The notes below the pieces were generated by a model. The model was given only the letters and a program-made list of their open reading frames with translations, made no database searches and was not told where the DNA came from. From Acidimicrobiales bacterium (GTDB lineage Bacteria; Actinomycetota; Acidimicrobiia; Acidimicrobiales; Aldehydirespiratoraceae), in assembly GCA_963662645.2 (NCBI GenBank), contig OY759762.1:1802004-1834003 (forward strand): a stretch of DNA of 32,000 bases, in the 5' to 3' direction. A program made the position numbers and the translations under genes. Each line of letters opens with the position of its first letter. Within the stretch, counting starts at the first letter, position 1. Below are positions 1 to 15,260 of the stretch, one piece after another.

Positions 1-1117
<1,117 letters not shown>

Positions 1118-1226
1118 GAGTTCTTCCTTTCACTATCTAATTCACAGGCATGGCTCCGCTGGCAATATGGGAACGGCTACTACGTCCCATGCGGCTACCC
1201 AACAGTGTGAAGCAGCCTTGTTCGCG

Positions 1227-1240
1227 ATAGTATATACTAT
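1227..1240. promoter_or_regulatory. perfect 14-bp AT-rich palindrome in the divergent intergenic region (candidate operator or bidirectional -10 region)
   Basis: atagtatatactat equals its own reverse complement. It lies midway in the 221-bp AT-rich spacer between the divergent genes starting at 1117 (-) and 1339 (+). A weaker plus-strand promoter candidate is TTGCGA (1280-1285), 15 nt spacer, TAATTT (1301-1306). Confidence 0.35.
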
Positions 1241-1338
1241 GGTTTGATGATCTGCTTGAGAGAAAAGGACAATCACAGATTGCGAGTGCACCACTGGCCG
1301 TAATTTTGGGGTAGGACCAAAGGGAGAGAGGGGCGACG

Positions 1339-2547
1339 ATGAGTGGTCCGAAGTGCGCCAGATATCGCATCGACCCGGCTGTGTTGGCCGAGGCGAGGAG
1401 GAGATCGGCTGCATTGGCCGTGCGCGACGGCTTGATCGACCGCATCGCGGCCTTCGAGACAGTGTGCGCCGCTCGACGCAGGGCCGGGCGCACTGCTATG
1501 TGGGAGTGGCAGTCGGGAAGCGTCTCCCGGTCGACCGGCACAGCCGAGATCGAAACGTGGAACATCGAAGCTACAAGGGCGCTGGCAGAAGCCGAGTCGG
1601 AACTCGCCGAAGTCGAACGAAGCGAGCGCCAGCAGGACATCCGCAGCAGGATCGCCGCCGTGGCCTCAGGACGCATCGGCGATCTGATACGTGGCGATGC
1701 CGCGGCCAAGAAGGCTGACGACGACGAGCCGAGACAGCCGGCCGAGTCGGGATCGCCCGGCGCGACCGTGACCGACGACGACCGCCACCGCGAGATCGCG
1801 GCACTGATAGACCGGCTGCCAATCGGTGCGACCGCCCAAGAGCGTGACGCCATCGACGAGCAGATCACCGGGCTGGCGGAGGCGGCGGCAACCGAGTTCA
1901 GCTCCCGCCTCGTCGGGCTCAAGGCCGAGATACAGCGCGTCGAACGGTCGGTCGAATCCCGCGCTGAGGTGCACCGGCGCGCTGAGCAGCTTCTGAGAAC
2001 CCTCGACGGACTAGAGGGCGGCGAGATAGCCGAGAGCCGAGCACTACTGCATCGGGTGATCTCCGGTCAGACGCCTCTGCTGCATGCCGACGTGGAGCGT
2101 GTGGCGCGGGCGCGCTCCGCGGCAACTGCCGACTTCGAGCGACGCCTCGTCGCCACCAAGATCGAGGAGGCGCTTCGACGGTCGGGGATCGAGGTCGGAG
2201 CGGGCTTCGCTACCGATGTCGTCAAAGGCGAGAAGGCCTATGGGGCGGCCCGCTCCTCCGATGAGCACGCCGTCGAACTCCAACTGCGCGACGGCCTCGT
2301 GGACATGCGCATCGTTCGGGCGTCCGGCACATCCGACCCTCGACGCGACACTGCGGCAGAGGTCGAGTTTTGTGAGGACGTCGAACGCGTCAGCTCAGAA
2401 CTGCACAGCCGCGGCGTGGACTTGACGCTCATCAGCAACCAACCTCCGGGCGCGGCCAGGGTCGAGGTCGTCCCCCGCGCTCAGGACGCGCTGGCGGCGC
2501 GGCGACGCAGACGCGCCCAGCCAATCGGAAGGAAACGCGAGAGATGA
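1339..2547 (+). CDS. hypothetical protein, Ala/Arg/Glu-rich and probably largely alpha-helical or coiled-coil, with a compact C-terminal domain; first gene of the six-gene operon
   Basis: 402-aa ORF with GGGAGAGAGG 6-8 nt upstream of the ATG. Long heptad-like helical stretches (EATRALAEAESELAEVERSERQQDIRSRI; LVGLKAEIQRVERSVESRAEVHRRAEQLLRTL). Its stop overlaps the next start (ATGA at 2544-2547). No domain recognised. Confidence 0.7.
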   Translation: MSGPKCARYRIDPAVLAEARRRSAALAVRDGLIDRIAAFETVCAARRRAGRTAMWEWQSGSVSRSTGTAEIETWNIEATRALAEAESELAEVERSERQQDIRSRIAAVASGRIGDLIRGDAAAKKADDDEPRQPAESGSPGATVTDDDRHREIAALIDRLPIGATAQERDAIDEQITGLAEAAATEFSSRLVGLKAEIQRVERSVESRAEVHRRAEQLLRTLDGLEGGEIAESRALLHRVISGQTPLLHADVERVARARSAATADFERRLVATKIEEALRRSGIEVGAGFATDVVKGEKAYGAARSSDEHAVELQLRDGLVDMRIVRASGTSDPRRDTAAEVEFCEDVERVSSELHSRGVDLTLISNQPPGAARVEVVPRAQDALAARRRRRAQPIGRKRER

Positions 2548-4469
2548 CCGACACCCAAGAACCGGCCAACGCCGCACGGCAGGCCGACACCGCACAAGCC
2601 GACACAGCCCAGGAAACTGGCGCCACGCAAGAGATCGAAGTGGCGGCCGACCCTGCGTGGCCGGCTTGGCTGAGGGAGATAGATGCACTGTTGGCGGTCC
2701 ATTCCCAGTTCGTGCTCTCGGGCAATGTGCACGACAGATACCGGCTTCCCTCGAGCGAGACGCCGCTGGCCGACACAATCTCCGCCGCCCTACTGGCAGG
2801 ACTGCGCGGGGCAGGATTCCAAGCGCTGATAGTCCATGACGTGGTCGACGGCTACCGCGTCGTCGCCGACGACCATGAGGCGGCCTGGGCCGATGCCCAT
2901 GCCCTGACCGGCCACGACCTGCGCTCGGCGCCGGCGGACGACCTCGGCCGGCTCGCCGGGGTCATCAATTCCTTCGCGGTGGGCGAAGGTCCCCGCATGG
3001 GACTGGTGCTCGAGTACGCCAGCCGTATCAGCCCGAGCATCACCGACCTGGGCCCGCGGGAGCACGCATTCTTCGCCGCCAGCCTCAAGTGCTCCCACGA
3101 GGCCCGTCCGGGCCACCACCCGTCCGCGTCGCGCGGCGCGATCTACAACCCGGTGTTCTGGGTCGTCGACCGCGAGCACGACCTCCCGGCATGGCTCACG
3201 GCGGGCAATCGGGGCATCCGGGCGATCCCGGTGCCCTGGCCCAGCCTGGCCGAACGCGAGGAGACGGCGGCGCTGCTCGCGGCCACAGCCGACGACGAGG
3301 ACCGCGACCATGCCGTCGAGACGCTGTCCACCCGCACGGAGGGCATGAGCACGGCGAGCCTGTTCGACATCGCGACACTGTTCGTCGACCAACGGATCTC
3401 CTACAGCGACGCGGAGGACGCCGTGCGGGTCTACAAGCTGGGGGCCGCCGAGAGTCCGTGGCGGCGCGGCGCAGCAACCCAGCGGCTTCGGGACCACGAT
3501 GTCGAGGGGGTGCTCAACGGCAAGGTGAAGGGACAGCAGGCCGCGGTCACCAAGGCCGCCGACATCCTCCGGCGCGCCGCGCTCGGACTGTCCGGCGCGC
3601 AGGCGGGGGCAAGCTCGAGCCGGCCCAGGGGCGTGCTGTTCTTCGCCGGGCCGACCGGCGTCGGCAAGACGCTGCTCGCAAAGGCCGTGACCGAGCTGGT
3701 CTTCGGCTCTGAGGACTCCTACGTGCGATTCGACATGAGCGAGTTCACATCCGAGCACGCCGGCGACCGGCTCGTGGGCGCTCCACCGGGCTACATCGGC
3801 TTCGAGGGCGGAGGCGAGCTCACCAACGCGGTGCGCCGCAAGCCCTACACGCTGCTGCTCTTCGACGAGATCGAGAAGGCCCATCCCCGCATCCTCGACA
3901 AGTTCCTGCAACTTCTCGACGACGGCCGCCTCACCGACGGACGGGGCACCACGGTCCACTTCTCCGACACGCTGGTCGTGTTCACCTCGAATCTCGGCAT
4001 GACCCAGCCAGCTCGCGACGGCACCGGCGTCCGCGTGCCGACGGTCACCCCCGCCGACTCCTACAACGTGATCGAGGCCCGAGTCACCGAGGAGATCCGC
4101 CGCTACTTCACCGAGGACCTCAACCGGCCCGAGTTGCTCAACCGGGTCGGCGACAACCTGGTGGTGTTCGACTTCATCCGCCGACCGGTCGCGGTGGAGA
4201 TCATCGACCTCATGCTGGGCAACATCGTTGCCCGGGTCGAGGAGTCCACCGGCACCACCATCGAGATCTCGGACCAGGCGATGGAACAGATCCACGAACT
4301 CGCCACCGCTGACTTGACATTCGGCGGGCGCGGCATCGGCAATGTGCTCGAATCGCGCTTCGTGAACCCGCTGGCGCGGGCGCTCTTCGCCCGAGAACCC
4401 TCGCCCGCTGCCAGCGTCAAGGTCATGGAGGTGTCGAGCGGCAGTGTCCCCCAAGTGGTGCTGCAGTGA
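2544..4469 (+). CDS. two-module AAA+ ATPase: degenerate N-terminal AAA-like module plus an active ClpA/ClpB D2-type module
   Basis: C-terminal half: GKVKGQQAAVTKAADILRRAALGL, Walker A GPTGVGKT, GAPPGYIGFEGGGELT, Walker B LLLFDEIEKAHP, LQLLDDGRLTDGRGTTVHFSDTLVVFTSN. This is colinear with the ClpB/ClpA D2 (AAA_2) signature and is followed by a D2-small-like tail. N-terminal half: AAA-like layout, but the P-loop position reads FVLSGNVHDRY and the Walker B position reads LVLEYA, so it is probably inactive. Confidence 0.9.
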   Translation: MTDTQEPANAARQADTAQADTAQETGATQEIEVAADPAWPAWLREIDALLAVHSQFVLSGNVHDRYRLPSSETPLADTISAALLAGLRGAGFQALIVHDVVDGYRVVADDHEAAWADAHALTGHDLRSAPADDLGRLAGVINSFAVGEGPRMGLVLEYASRISPSITDLGPREHAFFAASLKCSHEARPGHHPSASRGAIYNPVFWVVDREHDLPAWLTAGNRGIRAIPVPWPSLAEREETAALLAATADDEDRDHAVETLSTRTEGMSTASLFDIATLFVDQRISYSDAEDAVRVYKLGAAESPWRRGAATQRLRDHDVEGVLNGKVKGQQAAVTKAADILRRAALGLSGAQAGASSSRPRGVLFFAGPTGVGKTLLAKAVTELVFGSEDSYVRFDMSEFTSEHAGDRLVGAPPGYIGFEGGGELTNAVRRKPYTLLLFDEIEKAHPRILDKFLQLLDDGRLTDGRGTTVHFSDTLVVFTSNLGMTQPARDGTGVRVPTVTPADSYNVIEARVTEEIRRYFTEDLNRPELLNRVGDNLVVFDFIRRPVAVEIIDLMLGNIVARVEESTGTTIEISDQAMEQIHELATADLTFGGRGIGNVLESRFVNPLARALFAREPSPAASVKVMEVSSGSVPQVVLQ

Positions 4470-5128
4470 CGGTCGTAGCCGTCAACCGACTCCACTGGCC
4501 CGTGACCGTGCTCGGGCCGGGAAGACGGGTCGGGATCTGGGTCCAGGGATGCTCTATCGAGTGCCCGGGATGCGTCTCGCGGGACACTTGGCCGTCGATG
4601 AGCCACCGCGACCGCATCCCCGTGGCTGATCTGACCGCCCGCATCGACGCGCTGGTAGACCGCGGGGCCGAGGGGCCCATCGACGGAATCACGCTCACCG
4701 GGGGCGAGCCGTTCGATCAGGCCGACGCGCTCGACGGGCTCCTCGGAGCGCTCCGAAGCTGGCTGGACCGGCGAGGCGCGCCGTCTGCGGACCTGCTCGT
4801 GTACACCGGCTACGAGGAGTCCCAAGCCCGGGAACTCGCGGCCGGAGCCTTCGAACTCGCCGACGCGGTGATCGCCGGGCCGTACCGCGCGGGCCAACCG
4901 GGGACCCGCTGGTGGGGCTCCGGCAATCAGCGCCTGATCACCCGCGACGACGATGCCGCCGCCCGCTACCGGTCGGCACTGCGGGAGGCGCGCCCGGAGC
5001 TGCAAGTAGCCGTCGAGCAGGGGCAGGTGTTCATCATCGGCGTGCCCGGCCGCGGCGCCCTGGCCCAGGTGGAGACCCGGCTGGCCGACGCGGGAGTCGG
5101 CCTGGGGGGCGTGTCGTGGCGACCGTGA
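4466..5128 (+). CDS. NrdG/PflA-like radical SAM activating-enzyme family protein (4Fe-4S, CX3CX2C)
   Basis: GPGRRVGIWVQGCSIECPGCVSRDTW, with Cys codons at 4550-4552, 4562-4564 and 4571-4573. Then GITLTGGEPFDQ, LLVYTGY and DAVIAGPYRAGQPGTRWWGSGNQRLI, colinear with the small anaerobic-RNR activase (NrdG) pattern GC..C.GC.N..W / SGGEP / YTGY / RGS.NQR. The GTG start overlaps the upstream stop (GTGA, 4466-4469). Confidence 0.85.
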   Translation: MTVVAVNRLHWPVTVLGPGRRVGIWVQGCSIECPGCVSRDTWPSMSHRDRIPVADLTARIDALVDRGAEGPIDGITLTGGEPFDQADALDGLLGALRSWLDRRGAPSADLLVYTGYEESQARELAAGAFELADAVIAGPYRAGQPGTRWWGSGNQRLITRDDDAAARYRSALREARPELQVAVEQGQVFIIGVPGRGALAQVETRLADAGVGLGGVSWRP

Positions 5129-5589
5129 CCTGTTCGGGTGCGGACTGCGGCACCGTGTTGGGACCCGCAGACCTGCTGTGTCCCTCCTGCGGCCGTCCCA
5201 GACCGAGGGCGGTTCACACTGCGGGGGCGGGCCGACCGCTCGCCCAGTCGACGCTCGACCAGCCAGACGGCGGCGCCGCCCGCCGTTTCCGCCTCGTCGC
5301 ACCCTGGGGCGAACTCGCCATCGGGGACGCCGAGACCGACATAGGCCGTGAGGTAGGGCCGTTCGCGGCCGAGTTGAGCGGCTACCCGACCGTCTCGAGA
5401 CGGCACGCGACACTGCGGATCACCGAGTCGGGAAGGCTGCACGTGATCGACCACAACTCCTCCAACGGAACGTTCAAGAACGACAGCCGGATCGAGGCGA
5501 ACATCCCGGTGGAGTTGTGCGACCGCGACACGGTGTCGTTCTCGACGAGGCTGAGATTGGACGTGCGAGTGGAGGACGAGCACCCGTGA
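5125..5589 (+). CDS. zinc-ribbon plus FHA-domain protein
   Basis: In frame with track ORF 4912..5589. I place the start at GTG 5125, which overlaps the upstream stop (GTGA). N-terminus CSGADCGTVLGPADLLCPSCG (four Cys, ribbon-like). C-terminus has FHA hallmarks: IGREVGP...TVSRRHATLRI...HVIDHNSSNGTFKN. Confidence 0.85.
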   Translation: MTCSGADCGTVLGPADLLCPSCGRPRPRAVHTAGAGRPLAQSTLDQPDGGAARRFRLVAPWGELAIGDAETDIGREVGPFAAELSGYPTVSRRHATLRITESGRLHVIDHNSSNGTFKNDSRIEANIPVELCDRDTVSFSTRLRLDVRVEDEHP

Positions 5590-6296
5590 AGATCGCCGCG
5601 ACCACCCGGCGCGGCCAGCGGCGCGCCGAGAACCAGGACCGGATAGTGGTCGATAGCACCGTCCTGGGCAGCGACGTCGGCGGGACGACCGAGTTCGACA
5701 CCGGACCGCTCACCCTGTTGGCGGTGATCGACGGCATGGGGGGGCATCCGGCCGGCGGCGTGGCGGCCGCGGCCGCGGCCGATGTGATGGCGTCGGGGTT
5801 CCGCCGGCTGCGGACTCGCGAGGACGTAGGAAGGCTCGTCGAGGACGCCAACGACGAACTGTACGCCCTGATGGACCGGGTGTCCGGGCTGAGCGGTATG
5901 GGCGCGGCCGTAGCGGGGATCTTCACCGCTTCCGACGGACTCGTGATCTTCAACGTGGGCGATGCTCGGGTCTATCTGCACTCCAGCGGCTACCTGATGC
6001 AGGCGAGCATCGACGACCGCCGCCCCGGCGACGACACCGGCCCTGTGACCCAGTCGCTGGGAGGCCTGCGGGCCCATTCGCCGGTCCAGGTCCACCTGAG
6101 CAGCGAGCCCTATGACGGCGGCACAGCACTGGTGGCCAGCGACGGACTGTTTTCCCAGGTGTCCCATGAGCGCCTCGCCGAAGCCATGGCCGCCCCACCG
6201 GCTCGCGCCGCGAGCCGGTTGCTGGACACCGCCCTCGCGGCAGGCAGCCAGGACGACATCTCCCTGGGCTTGCTGCAGCTTCCGTCCCATGGCTGA
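5586..6296 (+). CDS. PP2C-family Ser/Thr protein phosphatase
   Basis: RRGQRRAENQDR, AVIDGMGGHPAGGVAA, NVGDARVYL, LVASDGLF, SQDDISLGLL. The start is taken as GTG 5586 overlapping the FHA gene stop (GTGA); track ORF 5517..6296 is in the same frame. Confidence 0.9.
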   Translation: MKIAATTRRGQRRAENQDRIVVDSTVLGSDVGGTTEFDTGPLTLLAVIDGMGGHPAGGVAAAAAADVMASGFRRLRTREDVGRLVEDANDELYALMDRVSGLSGMGAAVAGIFTASDGLVIFNVGDARVYLHSSGYLMQASIDDRRPGDDTGPVTQSLGGLRAHSPVQVHLSSEPYDGGTALVASDGLFSQVSHERLAEAMAAPPARAASRLLDTALAAGSQDDISLGLLQLPSHG

Positions 6297-8922
6297 CACG
6301 ACCCGACGCGACGATGACTTCCCGCCGAGCGCGCCGACACTGCGCGAGGCACAAGTCCCGTCCAGCGCGCCGACACTGCGCGAGTCCCCTTCGTCGCTCG
6401 AGTCGATGCGGGTTCACACCGGACCCGCCCAGCTGCCCAGCGAACTCACCGACAGCTATCGCCTGGTGCGCCAACTCGCCTCGGGCGGCGCGGAGGCGGC
6501 GCTGTTCGAGGTCGCCGAGACCGGTACCGGCGAGATCCGCGTCTTGAAGATCTACCACCAGCACGTGGCACTGCGAGGCGAGGCGCTGCTGCGCATTCGA
6601 TCGATCGACCCGGCCCATGTAGTGCATCTCGTCGACCACGGCCAGCTCGAGGACGGTCGATGGTACGAAGTGCAGGAACGGATCGAAGCCGGCAACCTCG
6701 TCGACTACCGATCGGGCGCGAGTCCCACGGAGAGCGACCTGGAGGAGGTCGTCGCAGAGTTGGGGGCTGCCATCGCGGCGTTCCACGGAGCCGGGCTCGC
6801 CCACCACGACATCAAGCCCGAGAACATCCTCGTCAGGAACATCTCGCCCCTCGACCTCGTGCTGGGCGACTTCGGGCTGTCGGTCGTGTCCGACAACCGC
6901 ACCTACTACGCGACCAACCGGCACGCCACCATCGCGTATCAGGCGCCTGAGACCATGCGACAGGTTGGAGGCGGCGCACGCGACTACTGGGCCGTCGGGC
7001 TCACCATCGCCATGCTCGCCACCGGCGAGACCCCGTACGCGGGCCTAAACGAACACGCCATCCTCGATCAGCACTACTACCGGATGCCGCCGGCCATCGT
7101 CGAGTCGATGCCGGAGGGCCGCCTCAAGCAGCTGTGTCGGGGACTGACCCGCTACGACCCCAAGACCCGCTGGTCCGAGCAGGAGGTCCGGAGTTGGCTG
7201 AGGGGCCACACTCCGGCCGTCGCGCCGGACGAGCCTCAACTTCCGGCCGACTCGACACGGGTCGTCCACTTCAACAACAAGCGGTTCACTGTTCCGGCCG
7301 CGCTGACCCGCGAGATATTGGAGTGCTGGTCGCTCGCGGCCGAGACCATCGGCGTGAGGGCCCGGCGAGAGCAGTTCATGGACGAGCTGATCCTGGCGTT
7401 CGGCACCGAGCCCCTCGCCATGCTGACCAGGCGGTGGAGCGCCGAACCGCCGCGCCGCGACCGCGTGGACGCCGCCATCGTCGAGCTGCTGCTGACGCTC
7501 GACCCCGAAGCTCCCGCCATCTACCGCTCCCGGCCCCTCGACGCGGCCACCATCGCCGCGGCGGCGCTCGGCGACTCCGAGGAGGACGCCCGCTTCGTTC
7601 GGGACCTCGGTGACCGCGGCCTGCTGTCGGCATGGTCCCACAGCGCCGACTACACGGAACTGGGCGACATCGACCAACGCTGGCAGGACGAGCTGAGTCG
7701 GGCCACCGAGATCATCTCCGAAGTCCGGGCCGCCGGGGCGGCCGCCCCTCCCATCGAGGTCTGGACCGCGCCCCTGCTGGCGGTGAGCGCTCGCGACGAA
7801 CTGATCGACGAATGGCAGCTGCAGCGCGCCCCGCGCCCCTTCGGTGACCTCATGCCCGGCTGGTACGAGCAGATCGCGGACGGATCGAGGCCGGCGGAGG
7901 TGATCGGCTCGGTGCTGCTCTTCACCGAGGCCCAGCGGGTTCAGCGCAACGCGGTAGAAGCACGGCACCGACAACAGCGGGAAGCCGAACGGTCGCGTCG
8001 CGACCGGAAGTACCGGGCACTCCTGTCACTCGCCGGCTGGACGGCGGCCGTGGCGTTCCTGGTCAGCTGGGTGCTGGCGCCAGGAGCGGGGCTCATCGTG
8101 TACGCGATCGCCTTCGCGCTCTTCCGCCAGTGGCGCAACGCCGTAGCCGACCGCCACAGAGTCCAAGAGTCGAGGGGGGAGACACCCGCAACCGAGGCGC
8201 ACGAGGTCGCCTTGTCGCTCTTCCGCCGCTGGTACCGCGCCAGGTCAGATCGCCGACGGGCCCGGCGGTCGAGGAGGGGGATCGTGTCTGCGGCGACCTC
8301 CGCCCTCGTCCGCCAGTCGCGCAATGCCAGGGATCGCCGCCGGGCCCGAGGTTCAGGGGGCGAGGTGCCCGCAACCGCGGCGCGTCCGGGCAGGGACGAG
8401 CTGTCCGCCAGCCGCAGAGCGGAGGCCTACGGGGTCCTGGCCTTCGGGCTTGTGGTGGCATGGGCGATAACCACGGACATCTGGCCACCGCTGGTGCGAC
8501 TGATCGCGAGCGACTCGCTCGACCTGGTAACCGTACGCCAGGACGGCTACAAGCTCGCCGGATTGGCGTCCCTAGCCTGGTCGCTGCTGTCGTTCCGGCA
8601 CCGCCGCAACGAGGGTCCTCCGACGGACGACCAGATCCAGCGACTGCGGGCCGCGGACCGCCGCACCTTGAGGAGGACCCTGCTGCTGACGTTGGTGTGG
8701 GGATTCGTCCGGTTCGCGAGCCTGTCCTTCTCGTGGTCGCGAGGCGCGGTCGCGACGCTGATGCTCAGCGTGTGGGTACCGGTCTCGCTCGGCGGCATGA
8801 GCCTGCTGGTGCGGGGGCGCTGGTCGCATCGCCGGGCCGGCACCAGATGGGCAGTGGTGCTGCTGGCCGCAGGCGCGGCTCTGTTCGCAACCGGACTGCT
8901 GCTGGAGTTCTTGCCGATCTAG
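6289..8922 (+). CDS. Hanks-type Ser/Thr protein kinase with a helical middle region and a multi-TM, Arg-rich-repeat C-terminal region
   Basis: Same frame as track ORF 6112..8922. Start taken as ATG 6289, which overlaps the PP2C stop by 8 nt (ATGGCTGA). Kinase motifs: IRVLKIY (catalytic Lys), HHDIKPENILV, DFGLS, AYQAPE, DYWAVGLTIAMLATGETPY. About 6-7 hydrophobic segments lie from roughly 8020 to the stop. Confidence 0.9.
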   Translation: MADTTRRDDDFPPSAPTLREAQVPSSAPTLRESPSSLESMRVHTGPAQLPSELTDSYRLVRQLASGGAEAALFEVAETGTGEIRVLKIYHQHVALRGEALLRIRSIDPAHVVHLVDHGQLEDGRWYEVQERIEAGNLVDYRSGASPTESDLEEVVAELGAAIAAFHGAGLAHHDIKPENILVRNISPLDLVLGDFGLSVVSDNRTYYATNRHATIAYQAPETMRQVGGGARDYWAVGLTIAMLATGETPYAGLNEHAILDQHYYRMPPAIVESMPEGRLKQLCRGLTRYDPKTRWSEQEVRSWLRGHTPAVAPDEPQLPADSTRVVHFNNKRFTVPAALTREILECWSLAAETIGVRARREQFMDELILAFGTEPLAMLTRRWSAEPPRRDRVDAAIVELLLTLDPEAPAIYRSRPLDAATIAAAALGDSEEDARFVRDLGDRGLLSAWSHSADYTELGDIDQRWQDELSRATEIISEVRAAGAAAPPIEVWTAPLLAVSARDELIDEWQLQRAPRPFGDLMPGWYEQIADGSRPAEVIGSVLLFTEAQRVQRNAVEARHRQQREAERSRRDRKYRALLSLAGWTAAVAFLVSWVLAPGAGLIVYAIAFALFRQWRNAVADRHRVQESRGETPATEAHEVALSLFRRWYRARSDRRRARRSRRGIVSAATSALVRQSRNARDRRRARGSGGEVPATAARPGRDELSASRRAEAYGVLAFGLVVAWAITTDIWPPLVRLIASDSLDLVTVRQDGYKLAGLASLAWSLLSFRHRRNEGPPTDDQIQRLRAADRRTLRRTLLLTLVWGFVRFASLSFSWSRGAVATLMLSVWVPVSLGGMSLLVRGRWSHRRAGTRWAVVLLAAGAALFATGLLLEFLPI
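6328..6384 (+). repeat. perfect 21-bp direct repeat (36-bp period) encoding a duplicated SAPTLRE motif at the kinase N-terminus
   Basis: agcgcgccgacactgcgcgag at 6328-6348 and 6364-6384, identical. Confidence 0.95.
8116..8375 (+). repeat. three degenerate repeats of about 90-100 bp encoding Arg-rich segments in the kinase tail
   Basis: Protein level: ALFRQWRNAVADRHRVQESRGETPATEA / SLFRRWYRARSDRRRARRSRRG / ALVRQSRNARDRRRARGSGGEVPATAA. DNA units start near 8116, 8215 and 8302 (gcgctcttccgccagtgg / tcgctcttccgccgctgg / gccctcgtccgccagtcg). Confidence 0.8.
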
Positions 8923-8934
8923 CGTCCGTGAGCG

Positions 8935-9438
8935 TCAGTAGACGGTGGCCCGGTTGGAGGGGTCCTTGTCGAGCTCGAACGACTGGTGCAGCGCACCAAC
9001 GGCCGGCTCCATGTCGTCGGCTCTGATCACGCACGAGATGCGGATGGCCGACGTGGAGATCATCTCGATGTTTATTCCGGCCGCCGCCAGCGTCTCGAAC
9101 ATCCGGGCGGCCACGCCCGGGTTGGTCTGCATGCCCGCACCGATCAGGCTCACCCGAGCGATGCCGTCGTCGGCGGAGACGTCGTCGGCGCCCAACTCAT
9201 CCATCAGTCCCTCAGCGACGGCCCGGGCTGCCTCGAGCTGCAAGCGGGGAACGGTGAAGCTGATGTCGGTGACGCCCTGACTCGACACGTTCTGCACGAT
9301 CATGTCCACGTTCACGTCGGTGTCGGCCAGCGCCCGGAACAGCCGGCCGGCCACGCCGGGCTTGTCGGCGACTCCCGAAACGGTCATCTTCGCTTCGCTG
9401 GCGTCGTGAGTGACGGCAGAGATGATGGCGTGTTCCAT
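8935..9438 (-). CDS. ask: candidate in-frame aspartokinase beta (regulatory ACT) subunit from an internal start
   Basis: Internal ATG (complement of 9436-9438; Met246, MEHAIISAVTHDASEAKMTVSGV) is preceded on the coding strand by GGGGAGGAAGCC-ATG, a strong Shine-Dalgarno sequence. It corresponds in position and sequence to the LysC-beta start known in Corynebacterium glutamicum. Confidence 0.5.
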   Translation of the reverse strand: MEHAIISAVTHDASEAKMTVSGVADKPGVAGRLFRALADTDVNVDMIVQNVSSQGVTDISFTVPRLQLEAARAVAEGLMDELGADDVSADDGIARVSLIGAGMQTNPGVAARMFETLAAAGINIEMISTSAIRISCVIRADDMEPAVGALHQSFELDKDPSNRATVY

Positions 9439-10173
9439 GGCTTCCTCCCCGGTAACTGTCGTGCCCGGCATCCAGCTGAAGGCGGACCGCACTCGCAGCT
9501 CCACGCCGTAGGTCCGGGCCAGCTCCACTGCCCGCATGGCCGGCTTCGGGCAGCCGCTGGCGGTCATCTCGAGCAGTTCATCGAATGAGATCACATCCAT
9601 GCGCCGCGCTTCGGGCGCTATGCGGGGGTCGGCGCTGAAGACCCCGGGCACATCGGTGTAGATCTCGCAGCAGTCCGCTTCGAGGACGTGGGCCAGCGCC
9701 ACGGCCGTGGTGTCGGAGCCTCCCCGGCCGAAGAACGTCACATCGCCGTCGCCGGACACCCCCTGAGAGCCGCCCACCACCGGAACTAGGCCCCGGTCCA
9801 GCGCCTCGGTTATGCGCCTCGGGGTGATCTGAACGATCTTGGCGTCAGTGTGGGAGGAGTCGGTGCGGAAACCGGCCTGGCTGCCGGTGAACGACGCGGC
9901 GGGAACTCCCAGATCGCTGAGCGCCATGGCCATGAGGGCACAGGCCTTGCGCTCGCCGCCGGTGATGAGCATGTCGACCTCGCGGCCGGGCGGATTCGAG
10001 GCCACATCGGAGGCCATTCGCAGCAGATCGTCGGTCTCGCTGCCCATCGCCGAGACGACCAGCACCACCTCGTCGCCGTGGTTGCGGCGGCGCGCCACAT
10101 GGTCGGCCACGACCCGAATGCGGTCGGGACCGGCCACCGAGGTACCACCGAACTTCTCAACGACGAATGTCAC
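8935..10173 (-). CDS. ask: aspartate kinase (aspartokinase), catalytic domain plus two ACT domains
   Basis: MTFVVEKFGGTSVAG (KFGGTS), VVLVVSAMGSETDDLL, FFGRGGSDTTAVALA, IYTDVPGVFSADPR and a C-terminal ACT-repeat region. Full-length 412-aa ORF. Confidence 0.95.
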   Translation of the reverse strand: MTFVVEKFGGTSVAGPDRIRVVADHVARRRNHGDEVVLVVSAMGSETDDLLRMASDVASNPPGREVDMLITGGERKACALMAMALSDLGVPAASFTGSQAGFRTDSSHTDAKIVQITPRRITEALDRGLVPVVGGSQGVSGDGDVTFFGRGGSDTTAVALAHVLEADCCEIYTDVPGVFSADPRIAPEARRMDVISFDELLEMTASGCPKPAMRAVELARTYGVELRVRSAFSWMPGTTVTGEEAMEHAIISAVTHDASEAKMTVSGVADKPGVAGRLFRALADTDVNVDMIVQNVSSQGVTDISFTVPRLQLEAARAVAEGLMDELGADDVSADDGIARVSLIGAGMQTNPGVAARMFETLAAAGINIEMISTSAIRISCVIRADDMEPAVGALHQSFELDKDPSNRATVY

Positions 10174-10287
10174 GGCTGATCAGGCTACCGGCGCCCCCAG
10201 TGGAGCCCGGCCGGAGACCGAGCGGTCAGGCCTCAGACATATCCACACCGCGGATGCTGCCGGAACCTCTCCGATCCGTGGCAGTCT

Positions 10288-10692
10288 GTGGGCGTGAGCG
10301 AAGCGCTCGCCGATGAGATCGTCCTCAGGGTGCCCGCGTCGATCGATCACGCGCGGATCTTGAGGGTCGGGGCCGCCGCGGTGGCCTTGCGCCAGGGAAT
10401 GTCGTTCACCGAGATCGACGAGCTCCGATCAGCAATTGACCGAGCCACCGAATTGCTGCTGGAGCGGCCGGTCGCCGAAGACGCCTCCATCGAGTGCGTG
10501 TTCAGGGCTCAGGGAGGATGCCTGGAGGTGGAGGCGCGGCGCACCGACGAGGCCAGGGTCGCGGCCACGGCCACGGCCCGATTCAAGAAGGCGGTCGACG
10601 CCTCGAACGTCACCGCCACGGTCGAGTCCGACCGGGGCCGGCTGCTCATGCGCAAACCTGTCGGCCGGCCCGGCAGCCGTCCCGCGGCCTAG
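10288..10692 (+). CDS. hypothetical protein; weak resemblance to RsbW/SpoIIAB-type anti-sigma HATPase-like proteins
   Basis: 134-aa ORF. The N-terminus IVLRVPASIDHARILRVGAAAVALRQGMSFTEIDELRSAIDRATELLL resembles the start of small actinobacterial anti-sigma regulatory-factor proteins, but the N-box Asn is not evident. The start is ambiguous (GTG 10288 or 10294). Confidence 0.45.
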   Translation: MGVSEALADEIVLRVPASIDHARILRVGAAAVALRQGMSFTEIDELRSAIDRATELLLERPVAEDASIECVFRAQGGCLEVEARRTDEARVAATATARFKKAVDASNVTATVESDRGRLLMRKPVGRPGSRPAA

Positions 10693-10813
10693 AGCGCCCG
10701 CGAACTAGTTTCCCGCGCTTGTTCACTGCGCTCACGGGCCGCTCGGGCCCTGGCCTCGCTTCCCGCTCACGCAAGACCCTCAGCCGACGCGGCCTATCCG
10801 CTCGGCCTCTCAG

Positions 10814-12441
10814 CCTGGATCCACCGGTGGGCGGCTGGTGTGGTGGGGGTTGGGGTTGGTTCGGCGCGTGGTGGGTTCTGGTGGGCGGCGCCGGGCGCCG
10901 CGGGCTGGTGCGGGCGTGCTGGGCCGGGGGTTGGGGCTTTGGCGGTTGGTGGCGCTGGGGGTGGTGCTGGGGGACGCCGGGCCCCTGGGTTCGGGGGTTC
11001 AGATGAGCAGGGGCAGGTTGCGGAGGTGTCGCAGCGCTCGGGTGAAGGTGTGCTGCCAGGGCCAGTCGGCGGGCAGGCGCAGGATGTGTCGTCGGCCGTG
11101 GTTGACGACGCGGCCGCAGACGGTGAGCAGCCGCTGTTTTTGTGTGTTGGCGACGGTGAGGCGGCCGGGGTGCTGGGCGCGGCCGAGGCGTGCGGTCCAG
11201 CGGGCGATGTTGTGGGCGAGCGAGGCGCAGGCGAGGTGGGCGGCGTTGGCGAAGAACCTGCCCGAGGGGCAGTGGGCGAGGCCGTTGTCTTTGAGGTCAC
11301 GAATGGCGAGCTCGACTCGGGCGTGGTCTCGGTGGTAGGCGTCGGCGGCGGCGGTGTCGAGGTCGTGGCGGTCAGTTATGAAGCAGTGGTGGCGCCAGTC
11401 GGGCCAGAGGGTTGCCTGTGCGCCTGTGAGGCGGCTGCGGCGCGCCACCAGCCGCAGCTTGCGGGGGCCGTCGGGGTCGCGGCGGCCGGTCTCGATGGTG
11501 GTCTCAGCGACCTGCGCTATGCCTTCTTCGGTGTAGGGGATCGGCGTCCAGGCTTTGTCCCCGATGGCGTCTATGGCTGCTGAGACCTTGGAGTTCTGCG
11601 GGATCGTGATCGAATACGACGCGCCGCGGGCCTCGATGGCGTCGATCATGTCATAGGAGAAGAACCCCGCGTCGGCGCGCACGGTCACCGCCGCGCCGGG
11701 AGCGAGACGACGCAGCCTCGCCAGGGTCTCGGCCACAAACCGCAGGTGGCCGCGCTGGGAGCTGCCGGACCGCATCCGGACGTGGACCATCTCGCCGGTG
11801 TCGTCTCTGGCCGCGACCAGCGGGTGATAGCCCAACACGCCGGTGTGGCCGTAGGCGGCGCCCTGCTTGGATGTGCCGTGGACCTCACAGACCGTGGAGT
11901 CCAGATCCACCGTGATCTCCCCAGCGTCGGGCGCCGCGCCCAAAGACCACGCCCGGCCGAGCGCCAGCTCGCCGGCGCGGTCGAGCTGGCGCACGTGTCC
12001 CCACGTGAACGAGCGCAGCCATGTCCCCAAAGTCGACGGCGCCAACGGCTCAAACGGCAGCACCGCCCCAGCAGAGCCCGCCCGCAGCCTGCTCGCGTCG
12101 TCGATGAACGAGCCGCCCACCAGCATCGACGCCGCCACCGACAGCGCCTTGGCCCCCGAGCCGCGCCCCGACCCGGGCGGGCGCACCGCCGCGTCGATCA
12201 GCGCCTCCAGCCCGAGGCGGTCCATCACCGTGCCCGCCAGCAACAGCCCCGCATCCGCCACCAAAGACCCGTCGTCGAAACGAACCTCCAACCCGTCGAT
12301 CCCACCCGATACGCTGCCCACAGGAAGTGCCTCCTCACGTGGCCGGAATGACCGTTACTGCAAACAGCATTCTCCCATGTCAGGAGGCCTTTCCGGTGGA
12401 CGCGCCAACCCCACAGCGCTCACCGCGCCGGTGGATCCAGG
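10814..12441 (-). mobile_element. IS1380-family insertion sequence, apparently intact (1628 bp)
   Basis: Perfect 14-bp terminal inverted repeats: cctggatccaccgg (10814-10827) and ccggtggatccagg (12428-12441). They are flanked by a 5-bp direct repeat CTCAG (10809-10813 and 12442-12446). The element contains a single transposase ORF. Size, CC-initiated inverted repeats and a 4-5 bp duplication fit the IS1380 family. Confidence 0.85.
10999..12321 (-). CDS. IS1380-family DDE transposase
   Basis: 440 aa. GAYGHTGVLGYHPLV, VTVRADAGFFSYDMIDAIEARGASYSITI, HHCFITD and the Y-x2-R-x3-E signature YHRDHARVELAIRDLK. GTG start with GAGGAGG 8 nt upstream. Confidence 0.9.
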   Translation of the reverse strand: MGSVSGGIDGLEVRFDDGSLVADAGLLLAGTVMDRLGLEALIDAAVRPPGSGRGSGAKALSVAASMLVGGSFIDDASRLRAGSAGAVLPFEPLAPSTLGTWLRSFTWGHVRQLDRAGELALGRAWSLGAAPDAGEITVDLDSTVCEVHGTSKQGAAYGHTGVLGYHPLVAARDDTGEMVHVRMRSGSSQRGHLRFVAETLARLRRLAPGAAVTVRADAGFFSYDMIDAIEARGASYSITIPQNSKVSAAIDAIGDKAWTPIPYTEEGIAQVAETTIETGRRDPDGPRKLRLVARRSRLTGAQATLWPDWRHHCFITDRHDLDTAAADAYHRDHARVELAIRDLKDNGLAHCPSGRFFANAAHLACASLAHNIARWTARLGRAQHPGRLTVANTQKQRLLTVCGRVVNHGRRHILRLPADWPWQHTFTRALRHLRNLPLLI

Positions 12442-12442
12442 C

Positions 12443-12880
12443 TCAGCGGCCGGTCGATCCGAAGCCCTGGTCGCCGCGCGTCGACGGATCGAGGCTCGGC
12501 ACCTCCACGAGCCGCACCTGCTCGACCGCCATCACGACCAGCTGAGCGATGCGCTCGCCCCGTTCGAGCGCGAAGGGGTGGAGCGGGTCGGTGTTCACCA
12601 GTATCACCTTGAGCTCGCCCCGGTAGCCGGAATCGATCAAGCCGGGAGTGTTGAGGCAGGTCACGCCGTGTTTGAGCGCGAGCCCGCTGCGAGGGAGCAC
12701 GAAGCCGGCGCAGCCCTCGGGCAACGACACGGCCATGCCGGTCGGCACCAGCGCACGGCCCCCGGCCGGCTGGATCGTCGTGGAGATGCGAGCCATCAGG
12801 TCGATGCCGGCGTCGCCGGGCCGGGCATAGCCGGGCAGGGGCAGGTCGGGATCGAGCCTCAGTATGGGAACCTCGAGCAC
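12443..12880 (-). CDS. dut: dUTP diphosphatase (trimeric dUTPase)
   Basis: GYARPGDAGIDL, PRSGLALKHG, GLIDSGYRGEL, C-terminal RGDQGFGSTGR. GTG start at 12880. The stop codon (complement of 12443-12445) lies inside the IS target-site duplication. Confidence 0.95.
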   Translation of the reverse strand: MLEVPILRLDPDLPLPGYARPGDAGIDLMARISTTIQPAGGRALVPTGMAVSLPEGCAGFVLPRSGLALKHGVTCLNTPGLIDSGYRGELKVILVNTDPLHPFALERGERIAQLVVMAVEQVRLVEVPSLDPSTRGDQGFGSTGR

Positions 12881-12889
12881 CGGCCGAGA

Positions 12890-12997
12890 GTAGCTGAACC
12901 GGCCCCGCGTGCCGGGTCGTTGTCCGCGCTGGTCGAGGCGGTCTCCGCAGCCGACGCGTTCGTAGCTGAACCGGCCTCGCGTGCCGGGTCGTTATCC
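12890..12997. repeat. two copies of a 36-bp direct repeat (72-bp period) in the dut/orn divergent intergenic region
   Basis: gtagctgaaccggccccgcgtgccgggtcgttgtcc (12890-12925) versus gtagctgaaccggcctcgcgtgccgggtcgttatcc (12962-12997); 34 of 36 positions identical. Confidence 0.9.
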
Positions 12998-13004
12998 TGC
13001 CGCG

Positions 13005-13550
13005 GTGCTCGCGTGGATGGACTTGGAGATGACCGGCCTCGATCCCGAAGTCCACTCCATCGTCGAGATTGCCGCCCTGATCACCGACGACAACCTGGGG
13101 TTGGTGGCCAACGGGCCCGGCCTCGTCATCCATCAGCCGGCCGAGGTGCTGGACCGGATGGACGACACAGTGCGGGCCATGCACACCGACAGCGGGCTGC
13201 TGGAGAAGATTGAGGCATCAACCGTGAGCTTGGCCGAGGCCGGTGCATTGGTGCTCGCGTTCCTGCAAGAGCACATCGAGGAACCTCGCACCGTCCCGCT
13301 GTGCGGGAACTCCATCGGCACCGACCGCCGCTTCCTGGCCCGGCACCTCCCGGAGATCGACAACTTCCTGCACTACCGGTCGATCGACGTGTCGACTGTG
13401 AAAGAGCTGGCCCGCCGCTGGCAACCATCGGTGTACGAGAGCGCACCGGCCAAGGCCCGGGGCCACCGGGCCCTCGACGACATACGGGAGAGCCTCGAGG
13501 AGCTGCGCTGGTACCGCCACGCCGGATTCGTCGGCGCCCAGCCCCCATAA
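13005..13550 (+). CDS. orn: oligoribonuclease (DEDDh 3'-5' exoribonuclease)
   Basis: LAWMDLEMTGLD (exo I), CGNSIGTDRRFL (exo II), HYRSIDVSTVKEL, GHRALDDIRESLEELRWY (exo III, H-x4-D). The start is ambiguous: the track gives GTG 12981 (inside repeat copy 2); GTG 13005 or ATG 13017 give the usual short N-terminus. Confidence 0.9.
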   Translation: MLAWMDLEMTGLDPEVHSIVEIAALITDDNLGLVANGPGLVIHQPAEVLDRMDDTVRAMHTDSGLLEKIEASTVSLAEAGALVLAFLQEHIEEPRTVPLCGNSIGTDRRFLARHLPEIDNFLHYRSIDVSTVKELARRWQPSVYESAPAKARGHRALDDIRESLEELRWYRHAGFVGAQPP

Positions 13551-13555
13551 CTTCG

Positions 13556-14653
13556 ATGACCCGGACGACATACACCAGGCAGGAGCAGGAGCCCGCTTCC
13601 TCGGACGTGACCGAGGTGGCGCCGGGGGTGCTGCGGTTGCAGCTGCCCATAAGCATGCCGGGCCTCGGCCATGTCAACTGCTACGCCCTGGTCGACTCCG
13701 ACGGCGCCGCACTGGTGGATCCCGGGCTGCCCGGCGACGAGTCCTGGGCCGCGCTGGGCGACCGGCTCCGGCAGGCCGGCATTCCGCTGCGGCGGGTGCA
13801 CACCACCGTCGTCACCCACTCCCATCCCGATCACTACGGGGGCAGCCACCAGCTGCGGGAGGAGACCGGCGCCGAACTGCTGACCCACGCCGCCTTCACC
13901 TCCAGCCCCGCGGCCGACGACGCCAACGCCGACATCGACCTGGAGCTGCTGGAATTGGACCCCGACGCGCTGGTCGGTCTCTGGAAGGCGAAGCTACAAG
14001 AACGGGGCTGCACCCCCTGGGGTACCCGCCGAGAGGCGCCGCCCGACGAGGCCATCAGGCTCTTCATCCAGACCGACGTCGCAGGCAGCTTGCCCCGCTT
14101 CAGGGTGCCGGAGCCGACCATCCGGGTGGCCGACGGCGACCGCGTGCGACTAGCCGGGCGGGATTGGTTCGCGGTTCACACTCCCGGCCACACCACCGAC
14201 CACCTGTGCCTGTGGGATCCGACCGAGGGCGTGCTGCTGTCGGGCGACCACGTGCTGCCGACTATCACTCCCCACATCGCGGGCTCCACCGATCTCGACG
14301 ATCCGCTGGCGGCGTTCTTCGAGTCCCTGGAGCGGGTGGGTGCCTTTGAGGGCGTCAAAGTGTGCCTGCCCGCCCACGGTCATCCCTTCGGTGACCTGCG
14401 GGACCGCACCGCCAGCATCCGCCGCCACCACGGCGAGCGGCTCGACCGGCTCCGGGCGGCGGCAGCCGCACTGGGCCGCGCCCCGGTGGCGGCCTACATG
14501 AAGGAGTTGTTCTCCGAGCGGGCCTGGGGCGACATGGCCGCCAGCGAGACCTTCGCGCATCTGGAGCACCTGCGCGTGATCGGCGAGGCCGACAGCAGCC
14601 GCGACGGCAACGGATTGCTGCACTACCGGCTGAGAGCGAGCGCATCTAGGTGA
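13556..14653 (+). CDS. MBL-fold metallo-hydrolase
   Basis: Same frame as track ORF 13301..14653. ATG 13556 lies just after the orn stop. VVTHSHPDHYGG (HxHxDH), later HTPGHTTDH and LPAHG. Confidence 0.85.
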   Translation: MTRTTYTRQEQEPASSDVTEVAPGVLRLQLPISMPGLGHVNCYALVDSDGAALVDPGLPGDESWAALGDRLRQAGIPLRRVHTTVVTHSHPDHYGGSHQLREETGAELLTHAAFTSSPAADDANADIDLELLELDPDALVGLWKAKLQERGCTPWGTRREAPPDEAIRLFIQTDVAGSLPRFRVPEPTIRVADGDRVRLAGRDWFAVHTPGHTTDHLCLWDPTEGVLLSGDHVLPTITPHIAGSTDLDDPLAAFFESLERVGAFEGVKVCLPAHGHPFGDLRDRTASIRRHHGERLDRLRAAAAALGRAPVAAYMKELFSERAWGDMAASETFAHLEHLRVIGEADSSRDGNGLLHYRLRASASR

Positions 14654-15219
14654 GAGCTTGGCGCGCGGCCGCAGTTCTGGCCGTGACTGCGGCCGCCTGC
14701 ACGGGCGGCGCCGACGAGGAGGTCCCCAAGATCGTGCTGAGCCAGGACAGCCCGAGCTTCGTCGCGGAGACCGACATCTCGCCCGAGGTTCCCGACGACA
14801 CGAACGTGTCCGACCTCACCTTCGACCTCTTCGACGGCGGCACCGGCACCCTCGCCGACTACGCAGGCCAACCGCTGGTGGTGAACTTCTTCGCGTCGTG
14901 GTGCCCGCCCTGCGTGAGGGAGATGCCGGAGTTCCAGGAAGTCTTCGAGAGACTCGACGGTCAGGTGGCATTCCTCGGGCTCTCGCAGGACCAGTCCGCC
15001 CAAGACGCCCTCGACCTGGTGGAAACCACCGGCGTAACCTACGACGTGGGCTGGGACCTCGACCTCGAGGTCTACAAGACGACCGGAAGCATCGCCATGC
15101 CCACCACCGTGTTTGTGTCGCCCTCCGGCGAGTTGCTCGACATCTTTGCCGGCGTGCTCGACACCGAGTCACTGGCCGAGCGCATCGAGAATGCACTCGG
15201 CGTAACGGTCGGGGCGTAG
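14650..15219 (+). CDS. TlpA/ResA-like thiol-disulfide oxidoreductase, lipoprotein
   Basis: Signal peptide with lipobox (AVLAVTAAAC). Thioredoxin-fold motif VVNFFASWCPPCVREMP. The GTG start overlaps the upstream stop. Confidence 0.85.
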   Translation: MRAWRAAAVLAVTAAACTGGADEEVPKIVLSQDSPSFVAETDISPEVPDDTNVSDLTFDLFDGGTGTLADYAGQPLVVNFFASWCPPCVREMPEFQEVFERLDGQVAFLGLSQDQSAQDALDLVETTGVTYDVGWDLDLEVYKTTGSIAMPTTVFVSPSGELLDIFAGVLDTESLAERIENALGVTVGA

Positions 15220-15260
15220 ATCCATGAACCTCCACTTGGTGGTCGGGGCGTAGATCCGTG
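15207..15260 (+). repeat. 34-bp-period duplication of the tlpA-like 3' end and ccdA start context
   Basis: ggtcggggcgtagatcc followed by ATG (15207-15226), and the same 17-mer followed by GTG (15241-15260). Confidence 0.9.

Follow-up and report, generated by a model that had tools for sequence, protein, structure and literature searches.

A conserved gene module combining a ClpB-D2-type ATPase, a radical SAM enzyme, and a membrane-anchored serine/threonine kinase, found in an Acidimicrobiales bacterium and other bacteria

Introduction

In the H1 type VI secretion system (H1-T6SS) of Pseudomonas aeruginosa, a membrane Hanks-type kinase (PpkA), a PP2C phosphatase (PppA), and an FHA protein (Fha1) are encoded together with a ClpB-type ATPase (ClpV1). 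The binding of phosphothreonine by FHA domains is an established property. In the type I Mokosh system, MkoA, which combines a serine/threonine kinase (STK) with an RNA helicase, is accompanied by MkoB, a nuclease of the phospholipase D (PLD) type. The glycyl-radical activases, such as PflA (PDB entries 3C8F and 3CB8) and NrdG (TIGR02491), are radical SAM (S-adenosylmethionine) enzymes. This study concerns a cluster of six genes, A to F, at positions 1339-8922 of a 32,000-nucleotide stretch of an Acidimicrobiales bacterium genome (Aldehydirespiratoraceae; assembly GCA_963662645.2, contig OY759762.1, positions 1,802,004 to 1,834,003), which is called the window below. The genes encode a protein of an unnamed family (A), an AAA+ ATPase (B), a radical SAM enzyme (C), an FHA protein (D), a PP2C phosphatase (E), and a Hanks-type kinase (F). 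I am confident that they represent a genuine conserved functional module, of which no description was found in the resources searched.

Comparison with described systems

A full-text literature search, with subscription-only papers outside its scope, gave no description of the gene set. The proteins were compared with the profile libraries Pfam (2025), NCBIfam (June 2026), PADLOC-DB v2.0.0, and PHROGs. Neither protein A nor the N-terminal domain of protein B is covered by any family of Pfam, NCBIfam, or PHROGs, and proteins C and B have only sub-threshold similarity of the NrdG and ClpB types. In PADLOC-DB, no match at E <= 0.01 was found for A, C, or D. Protein E has only a marginal match to PDC-M21C (E = 0.004, 14 bits), while protein F matches kinase-domain models only, namely those of PD-T4-6, mad6, and MkoA (3.9e-20 for the MkoA kinase region). 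Thus, no component set of a named system was matched and the A-B-C trio was not assigned to a known pathway, as the first-pass annotation, made from the sequence alone, had supposed. To my knowledge, no equivalent system architecture has been described.

Protein C shares the GPGxR, CX3CX2C, RDTW, and GGEP core with PflA and NrdG. In contrast to these activases, it lies below every curated cut-off, the loop corresponding to DGxGxR opens with Leu instead of Asp, an extra C-terminal domain of about 60 residues is present, and its gene has an AAA+ partner gene and no glycyl-radical enzyme nearby. Likewise, residues 320-628 of protein B share the D2 and D2-small domains and all motor motifs with the Hsp100 proteins ClpB, ClpA, and ClpV. 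However, B has a single recognisable AAA+ module, and the Clp_N, M, and D1 domains of Hsp100 proteins were undetected by sequence methods.

The cluster resembles H1-T6SS in that a kinase, a phosphatase, and a phosphothreonine reader may gate a machine whose gene set includes a ClpB-type ATPase. Unlike in H1-T6SS, the FHA and PP2C genes are optional here, the radical SAM gene is obligatory, and the kinase has C-terminal transmembrane (TM) segments and a private middle domain. As for Mokosh, Hhe, and PDC-S37, the models of these systems are strongly matched by partner proteins of plasmid-borne variants described below (a Rhizobium fusion protein and a Polaromonas helicase). The plasmid MkoA-like helicases differ from type I Mokosh in that they are paired with a restriction endonuclease (REase) or PIN domain, not with a PLD nuclease. 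No helicase, nuclease, or PLD was detected in the window cluster with Pfam and PADLOC, so the cluster does not qualify as type I Mokosh. I know of no radical SAM enzyme, ClpB-type ATPase, or protein A in Mokosh, Hhe, or PDC-S37. Dodola (DolB) and PDC-M37B match protein B in the AAA core only (residues 357-488, about 120 residues). In contrast to Dodola and PDC-M37, the cluster has no counterpart of DolA or PDC-M37A, and the B N-terminal domain is unmatched.

Conservation of the gene module

The six open reading frames (ORFs) are arranged head-to-tail on the plus strand with no intergenic gap (Table 1). Direct reading of the junctions gave ATGA at 2544, GTGA at 4466, 5125, and 5586, and ATGGCTGA at 6289. 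The first-pass annotation had reported a start/stop overlap at all five junctions, and the strings and positions are the same. Is this arrangement common in other genomes? A scan of 185,579 species genomes, one per species, was seeded on protein C, and at least 585 confirmed loci with a C relative were obtained. The neighbourhoods of the best 80 of these loci were then surveyed by tblastn and by hidden Markov models built in this study. Of the 80, 54 loci extend to either side of the C gene by 5 kb or more, and the following counts refer to these 54. B was found in 51 loci, with both its private N-terminal half and its AAA half, the kinase in 49, and A in 45. In 45 loci, A, B, and the kinase occur all together with C. 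The FHA gene was found in 20 loci and the PP2C gene in 11, and both are absent from the betaproteobacterial versions.

It is therefore observed that the core consists of A, B, C, and the kinase, while the FHA and PP2C genes are accessories in Actinobacteria and Clostridia. It had been proposed that the six genes are one unit, and it had been asked whether the radical SAM, AAA+, and 402-residue protein genes co-occur elsewhere; they do, and the proposal holds, since the neighbourhood is conserved across many genomes. In contrast, the proposed signalling triad of kinase, phosphatase, and FHA protein stands only with respect to the kinase, and the other two members are not part of the core. The FHA adaptor step, which had been suggested as a part of the mechanism, is ruled out as a general one by its presence in 20/54 loci and by the betaproteobacterial copies lacking it.

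The six-gene order is identical in every fetched context of the close relatives of protein A (loci L001-L004, L006, and L007). The identity of their A proteins with that of the window is about 50% in L001, L002, L006, and L007, 59% in L003, and 39% in L004. The betaproteobacterial copies have the order A-B-C-kinase, again with start/stop overlaps. In an Undibacterium locus (L035), A (7048-8118), B (8115-9998), C (9995-10651), and the kinase (from 10652) show the same overlaps. The hosts include Acidimicrobiia, Micromonospora, Streptomyces, Actinoallomurus, Actinomadura, Mycolicibacterium, and Betaproteobacteria (Undibacterium, Rhodocyclaceae, and Burkholderiales), as well as others. The phyletic distribution is patchy, extending over Actinomycetota, Alphaproteobacteria, Betaproteobacteria, and Bacillota. 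Flanking genes are common to different loci only within genera, which indicates that the block travels as a unit.

Protein C, a radical SAM enzyme

Protein C matches Fer4_12 of Pfam. It scores 69.7 bits on NrdG TIGR02491 over residues 14-159 (cut-off 126.1) and 41.6 bits on PFLA (cut-off 231.75). In a profile search of PDB sequences, the best match was PFL-AE 3C8F (E = 4e-13), while QueE reached only 6e-5. The identity with NrdG of T4-like phages is 31-32% over residues 3-158. In 16 diverse members, no change was found in residues C29, C33, and C36 of the CX3CX2C motif or in G79-G80-E81-P82; the GPGxR and RDTW motifs are invariant too. Judging from these features, C is a member of the glycyl-radical-activase clade that falls below the curated cut-offs. 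The C-terminal extension of about 60 residues is conserved and family-specific, and ends with SWRP. The family comprises 1228 matches.

The public gene call of C (P0057) is 176 residues long and begins at Met45, and thus omits the CX3CX2C motif. The GTG start at 4466, which overlaps with the stop codon of B, is supported by the conservation of residues 1-44 (4466-4597) in all homologues.

Protein B, a ClpB-D2-type ATPase with a private N-terminal domain

Residues 320-628 of protein B match AAA_2 (4.9e-47) and ClpB_D2-small (3.2e-08) of Pfam. The score on the ClpB model is 258.7 bits (cut-off 1232), and the ClpB models align only at their positions 559-844. Neither a Clp_N domain nor an M-domain was found by Pfam or NCBIfam. 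Across 25 members, no variation was seen in the motor motifs, namely GPTGVGKT (Walker A), DE (Walker B), the GAPPGY pore loop (GYxG), T-N (sensor 1), and GGR (sensor 2). Judging from these invariant motifs, B has a competent D2 motor and is predicted to thread polypeptides.

The N-terminal domain (approximately residues 41-320) is family-specific and has its own invariant residues. Among 1.84 billion representatives, 397 clusters (50% identity) contain it, and nearly all of the members are 600-650 residues long. The first-pass annotation regarded this half as a degenerate D1 AAA module. The data do not establish this: none of 29 members has a Pfam match in this half, the comparison of this half with the D2 half by hhalign gave a probability of 0.3%, and the best match of a PDB profile search was the Vps4 lid with E = 0.13. 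The AlphaFold2 (AF2) model, with a predicted local distance difference test (pLDDT) score of 49.5, was too poor for a fold search; all that it shows is a beta-alpha-beta region with helices after it. It was built on a thin alignment of eight sequences, as a word-indexed homologue search of this half returned 7 proteins.

The first 40 residues of B (2544-2663) form a low-complexity tail rich in Thr, Gln, Ala, and Pro, and a similar tail is present in L003 (11209-11490). This Thr-rich tail may hold phospho-acceptor sites. It is absent from the betaproteobacterial copies, which themselves lack FHA. The correlation of the tail with FHA is imperfect: L001 has FHA and no Thr-rich tail.

Protein A, the founding member of an unnamed family

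Protein A had been noted as a 402-residue helical protein with no recognisable domain, and no match to it was found in Pfam, NCBIfam, PADLOC, or PHROGs. The close family of A consists of 40 proteins among 5.8 billion searched. An alignment of 29 members across phyla revealed a conserved N-terminus, a helical middle region rich in insertions and deletions, and a conserved C-terminal alpha/beta domain (approximately residues 270-393). The AF2 model (pLDDT 84; predicted template modelling score, pTM, 0.73) shows long helices in addition to a short strand at the N-terminus, and residues 283-393 form a small alpha/beta domain. A fold search with this model against PDB and BFVD gave nothing with E < 0.02, and a profile search of PDB sequences gave coiled-coil noise only. 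Proteins A (49-59% identity) and FHA (44-47%) are the fastest-evolving parts of the module, compared with 76-85% for the B motor.

The N-terminus is usually MSGP: Met-Ser is present in 39/39 sequences, Gly3 in 31/39, and Pro4 in 28/39. In the C-terminal domain, Cys345 is invariant in 34/34 sequences, including the Clostridia plasmid, Rhizobium plasmid, and Polaromonas copies, while D337, E341, and G371 are near-invariant. Three glycines were considered as a glycyl-radical site and all were rejected. The glycine in RIVRASGTS is not conserved, Gly3 of the MSGP head is present in just 31 of the 39 sequences, and the Clostridia and Polaromonas copies lack G371. With the glycine candidates gone, Ser2 and Cys345 are the only residues that stay invariant in the aligned sequences of A.

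Proteins D, E, and F

Protein D has an FHA domain (2.5e-12) behind a Cys4 zinc ribbon (CxxxxC...CxxC). Protein E matches PP2C_2 (6.1e-08) and the Stp1 family (3.5e-26), with the metal-binding motifs RAENQD, DGMGGH, SDG, and QDD. Protein F matches Pkinase (5.9e-24), and the VLK, HHDIKPEN, DFG, and APE motifs are present in its translation. Thus, the catalytic and binding motifs of the kinase, phosphatase, and FHA protein are all retained. The domain calls that had been made for the six proteins were upheld by the Pfam and NCBIfam searches, with the exception of the D1 module of B.

No further Pfam domain, and hence no known sensor domain, was found in F. Five strong hydrophobic segments and some weaker ones lie within residues 578-872, the C-terminal third, which is compatible with the about 6-7 TM segments counted earlier. 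The Arg-rich repeat of the kinase tail was also recovered, as a direct repeat (8149-8200 and 8332-8383) with a 61-residue unit.

Between the kinase domain and the TM segments, there is a family-specific helical domain of about 250 residues (approximately 326-575). Across the loci, the kinase family shares a layout of a kinase domain, the helical domain of about 250 residues, and one to six C-terminal TM segments. Homologous post-kinase domains occur in Actinobacteria and Betaproteobacteria, and the domain can be detected in the kinases of the Clostridia plasmid as well. No convincing relative was found in PDB; the best match, YciF, was marginal (E = 0.001, about 75 residues). Since this private middle domain is common to the actinobacterial, betaproteobacterial, and Clostridia plasmid copies, the kinase is, by this sequence criterion, a dedicated component of the module that co-evolves with it, and not a passer-by.

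Variants on plasmids and conflict-type neighbours

On megaplasmids of Rhizobium and Caballeronia (8 records), B and C are followed by a gene for a 2086-residue fusion protein and then by an A homologue starting with MSGPK. The fusion protein consists of STK, DUF4011, SF1 helicase, and REase_MTES_1575 domains. The Rhizobium protein scores 9e-139 on PDC-S37, 8e-65 on Hhe, and 2e-46 on MkoA in PADLOC. In the Polaromonas plasmid pPNAP02, an MkoA-like helicase (8e-102), a PIN_4 protein, an A-like protein, B, and C are encoded, with no kinase. This copy sits among insertion sequence (IS) and toxin-antitoxin genes. An Aristaeella (Clostridia) plasmid has a shuffled gene order, namely a DUF4011 giant, STK, A (MSGPK...), FHA, C, B, PP2C, DUF6273, and a second kinase. 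The combination of a conserved core with interchangeable membrane and nuclease modules is a pattern typical of conflict systems.

Three IMG/VR contigs encode a distant C and B. The kinase is present in both of the contigs that have sequence downstream of C (L098 and L099), and an FHA gene was found in L099, the one IMG/VR contig scanned with Pfam. In Micromonospora L090, the module is directly followed by the genes for a NACHT NTPase and two CHAT proteases (11986-17007).

In six Actinoallomurus loci (L011, L013, L016-L018, and L047), B and C are followed by a gene for a long FHA protein (368-389 residues). In the same loci, no kinase was found within 8 kb and A was undetectable. Possibly, these loci represent an additional subtype with an extra domain in the FHA protein.

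Two apparent gene fusions were rejected as such. In L172, a single ORF of 870 residues (P0212; 8001-10613) contains the B N-terminal domain, a truncated AAA_2 domain, and a truncated Fer4_12 domain without the Cys motif. Housekeeping genes flank this lone ORF, with gyrA and gyrB close by. Its domains show truncation at the junction, and P0212 was read as a decayed remnant and not as a Rosetta-stone fusion of B and C. The domains of P0206 (B and FHA) are also truncated at the junction.

Organisation of the locus in the window

The positions of the genes and other features are listed in Table 1. In this genome, genes A, B, and C carry no protein names in the source records. An alternative start of gene D is the GTG at 5116, as the gene calls of L003, L004, and L007 begin 12 nucleotides before the C stop codon. 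A consensus scan found no terminator-like site within 1339-8922; all four such sites are at 769-1031. The GC content drops to 0.61 at positions 1001-2000. The leader upstream of gene A contains a perfect 12-nucleotide palindrome, TAGTATATACTA, at 1228-1239, about 100 nucleotides 5′ of gene A, which is a possible operator. A Shine-Dalgarno-like run, GGAGAGAGG, immediately precedes the ATG codon of gene A. No match to the sigma-70 consensus promoter was found in the leader by a consensus scan, and no structured RNA or riboswitch was found anywhere in the window by an Rfam search. A search for flanking repeats and att sites bordering the cluster recovered nothing but the terminal inverted repeats of the IS element.

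Table 1. Coordinates of the cluster genes and of neighbouring features in the window
Feature	Position	Strand	Description
asd, 5′ part	417..1	-	91% identity over aa 1-139 by tblastn against L001 asd; runs off the window
202-aa multi-TM ORF	1117..509	-	Lower GC; between asd and the module
Leader upstream of gene A	1118-1338	+	AT-richer; putative promoter/operator
Gene A	1339-2547	+	402 aa; founding member of an unnamed family
Gene B	2544-4469	+	641 aa; private N-domain and ClpB-D2-type AAA+
Gene C	4466-5128	+	220 aa; NrdG/PflA-like radical SAM enzyme
Gene D	5116 or 5125 to 5589	+	154-157 aa; zinc ribbon and FHA
Gene E	5586-6296	+	236 aa; PP2C Ser/Thr phosphatase
Gene F	6289-8922	+	877 aa; Hanks-type Ser/Thr kinase
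ask	10173..8938	-	AA_kinase and ACT domains; 91.5% identity to L001 ask
IS element	10803-12452 (transposase 12321..10999)	- (transposase)	DDE_Tnp_1_4/DDE_Tnp_1 transposase; inserted between a small conserved gene and dut

The genes on either side of the module are asd, for aspartate-semialdehyde dehydrogenase, and ask, for aspartokinase. In the sister genomes L001, L006, and L007, ask is directly followed by asd, and the module lies immediately downstream of asd. It had been noted that the cluster is part of an insertion splitting a housekeeping operon. The geometry of ask, the module, and asd agrees with this view, but it does not speak for a fresh insertion, because the module is next to ask-asd in the sisters. 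The local history looks like a rearrangement of a lineage-resident module, not a new insertion. The 202-residue ORF has no Pfam or PHROGs match and no homologue in any related locus, and appears to be a genome-specific addition beside the cluster. Two tandem 24-nucleotide units (CCGCAGGCTATCGGCCGTTCACGC, 88% identical) are located at 467-514, between this ORF's end and the start of asd.

Beyond ask, a small conserved gene, the IS element, and then dut, RNase T, and further genes follow, in an order as in L001. The inverted repeats of the IS element are 25 nucleotides long (10803-10827 and 12428-12452) and 92% complementary. In L003, three transposases of this IS element's type are encoded just upstream of the module. 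In L001, a metagenome-assembled genome (MAG) of 'Ca. Aldehydirespirator', genes for a MamI restriction enzyme and an N6 methylase (3724-6272) lie upstream of ask-asd. An ORF of 515 residues at 19364-20908 of the window has a weak Radical_SAM match (E = 9e-4, below the cut-off) and is unrelated to gene C.

Discussion

What might the module do? My preferred reading, held with moderate confidence, is that it is a widespread, self-contained, and horizontally spread module that functions as a kinase-gated conflict system (anti-phage or anti-mobile-element) or stress system. The following scheme is conceivable. A membrane signal would switch the kinase on, and the kinase would then phosphorylate proteins of the system, for which the Thr-rich tail of B and the N-terminus of A, rich in Ser and Thr, are candidates. 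Where they are present, the FHA protein would bind phosphothreonine and the PP2C phosphatase would reset the switch. B, as a hexamer-type ClpB-D2 unfoldase, would spend ATP to thread or remodel a protein, most simply A. As PflA and NrdG suggest by analogy, C would use SAM and a [4Fe-4S] cluster to abstract a hydrogen from a residue of a protein, and the invariant Cys345 in the C-terminal domain of A would be the best candidate for the target. The outcome may be growth arrest or membrane damage through the multi-TM tail of the kinase, or, in the plasmid variants, attack on nucleic acids by the fused or adjacent helicase-nuclease proteins.

That protein-centred radical chemistry on A is the key step is a tentative proposal, which may well turn out to be wrong. 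A speculative extension, rather unlikely in its full form, is that the module represents a new class of immune or abortive-infection system. In such a class, a kinase-licensed unfoldase would feed A or an invader protein to the radical SAM enzyme, and radical chemistry would serve as the effector or the switch in aerobes, with swappable outputs (multi-TM tail, helicase-REase, or helicase and PIN).

The conflict reading draws on the patchy distribution, the copies on plasmids and IMG/VR contigs, the helicase-nuclease partners in Rhizobium and Polaromonas, the NACHT and CHAT genes in Micromonospora, and the IS copies beside the module in L003 and in the window. That A is a partner or target is favoured by its invariant Ser2 and Cys345 and by the fast evolution of A and the FHA protein. 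Several points weigh against the conflict reading. Beyond the competence of the individual parts, I infer all of the mechanism steps. A regex search for the glycyl-radical fingerprint RVxG[YFW] found none in the six proteins, and neither G371 nor Gly3 of A is invariant. The reader and eraser layer is dispensable, as is evident from the FHA and PP2C counts. The lack of PADLOC matches for A and C counts in the same direction. When 131 flanking ORFs of 25 loci were classified with Pfam, most proved to be housekeeping or metabolic genes, while genes for defence or mobility were few; an argument from enrichment in defence islands was dropped on this ground. The locus is also syntenic in eight Undibacterium species and in several Acidimicrobiia MAGs, being stabler than typical defence islands. 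Owing to the housekeeping flanks and the stable synteny, the defence reading is kept at the level stated above, and a resident regulator becomes its main rival.

According to this rival, which I consider possible though less than probable, the module is not a conflict system but serves its host as a resident physiological regulator. Its field might be, for example, protein quality control, a developmental switch, or stress of the envelope or membrane. The kinase would report the state of the envelope, while B and C would remodel or modify A for signalling or repair. A membrane-anchored kinase with no extracellular sensor domain would fit such a role, and so would the mostly housekeeping flanks, the synteny that is stable within genera and places the module near ask-asd in several Acidimicrobiia, and the absence of A and C from PADLOC. 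However, a resident regulator does not readily explain the patchy spread across phyla, the copies on plasmids and IMG/VR contigs, or the decayed remnant in L172. Also against it are the NACHT and CHAT genes adjoining the Micromonospora copy and the exchange of the kinase TM tail for helicase-nuclease modules, which score on the PDC-S37, Hhe, and MkoA models.

It is very improbable that C is simply the activase of an anaerobic ribonucleotide reductase or another glycyl-radical enzyme encoded elsewhere, its adjacency to the other genes being without mechanistic meaning. The similarity to NrdG (TIGR02491) and PflA is full-length, and several public sources label C relatives as NrdG-activating protein. 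In contrast, the score is far under the NrdG cut-off, and C has the conserved additional C-terminal domain ending with SWRP. B lies directly upstream of C in 51/54 loci, often with overlapping stop and start codons. No PFL, NrdD, or other glycyl-radical enzyme family was found among the Pfam-annotated neighbours in L001, L003, L006, L007, L088, and L090. Moreover, the hosts of C, which I take to be largely aerobes, include Micromonospora, Streptomyces, and Undibacterium.

An even less credible alternative is a regulator of the T6SS type (PpkA/PppA/Fha1 and ClpV) in which B is a ClpV-like recycling ATPase. The kinase, PP2C, and FHA genes do stand alongside that of a ClpB/ClpV-D2-type ATPase, and the TssH model gives 202 bits for the D2 half of B. 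However, the TssH cut-off is 885, the ClpV N-domain and D1 were undetected, no T6SS structural gene was found among the annotated neighbours in any locus examined, and most loci lack FHA and PP2C. Finally, stop/start overlaps are common in high-GC actinobacterial operons, but a chance adjacency resulting from compact packing is refuted, beyond almost any doubt, by the conservation of A, B, C, and the kinase across phyla with differing flanks.

Returning to the module as a conserved unit, three uncharacterised elements are defined here, each with sharp invariant residues: protein A, the B N-terminal domain, and the post-kinase domain. If the unit works together, a radical SAM enzyme of the glycyl-radical-activase type would for the first time be coupled with an AAA+ unfoldase. 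Likewise, this enzyme class would for the first time be employed outside anaerobic metabolism, and under the control of a serine/threonine kinase. For radical SAM enzymology, C is an orphan activase with an obvious candidate partner. The module is compact (4-6 genes, about 6-7.6 kb) and present in culturable Streptomyces, Micromonospora, Undibacterium, and Rhizobium, and is thus directly testable. If it is defensive, it would represent a mechanistically new branch of immunity, tied by domain swapping to helicase-nucleases of the Mokosh, Hhe, and PDC-S37 types.

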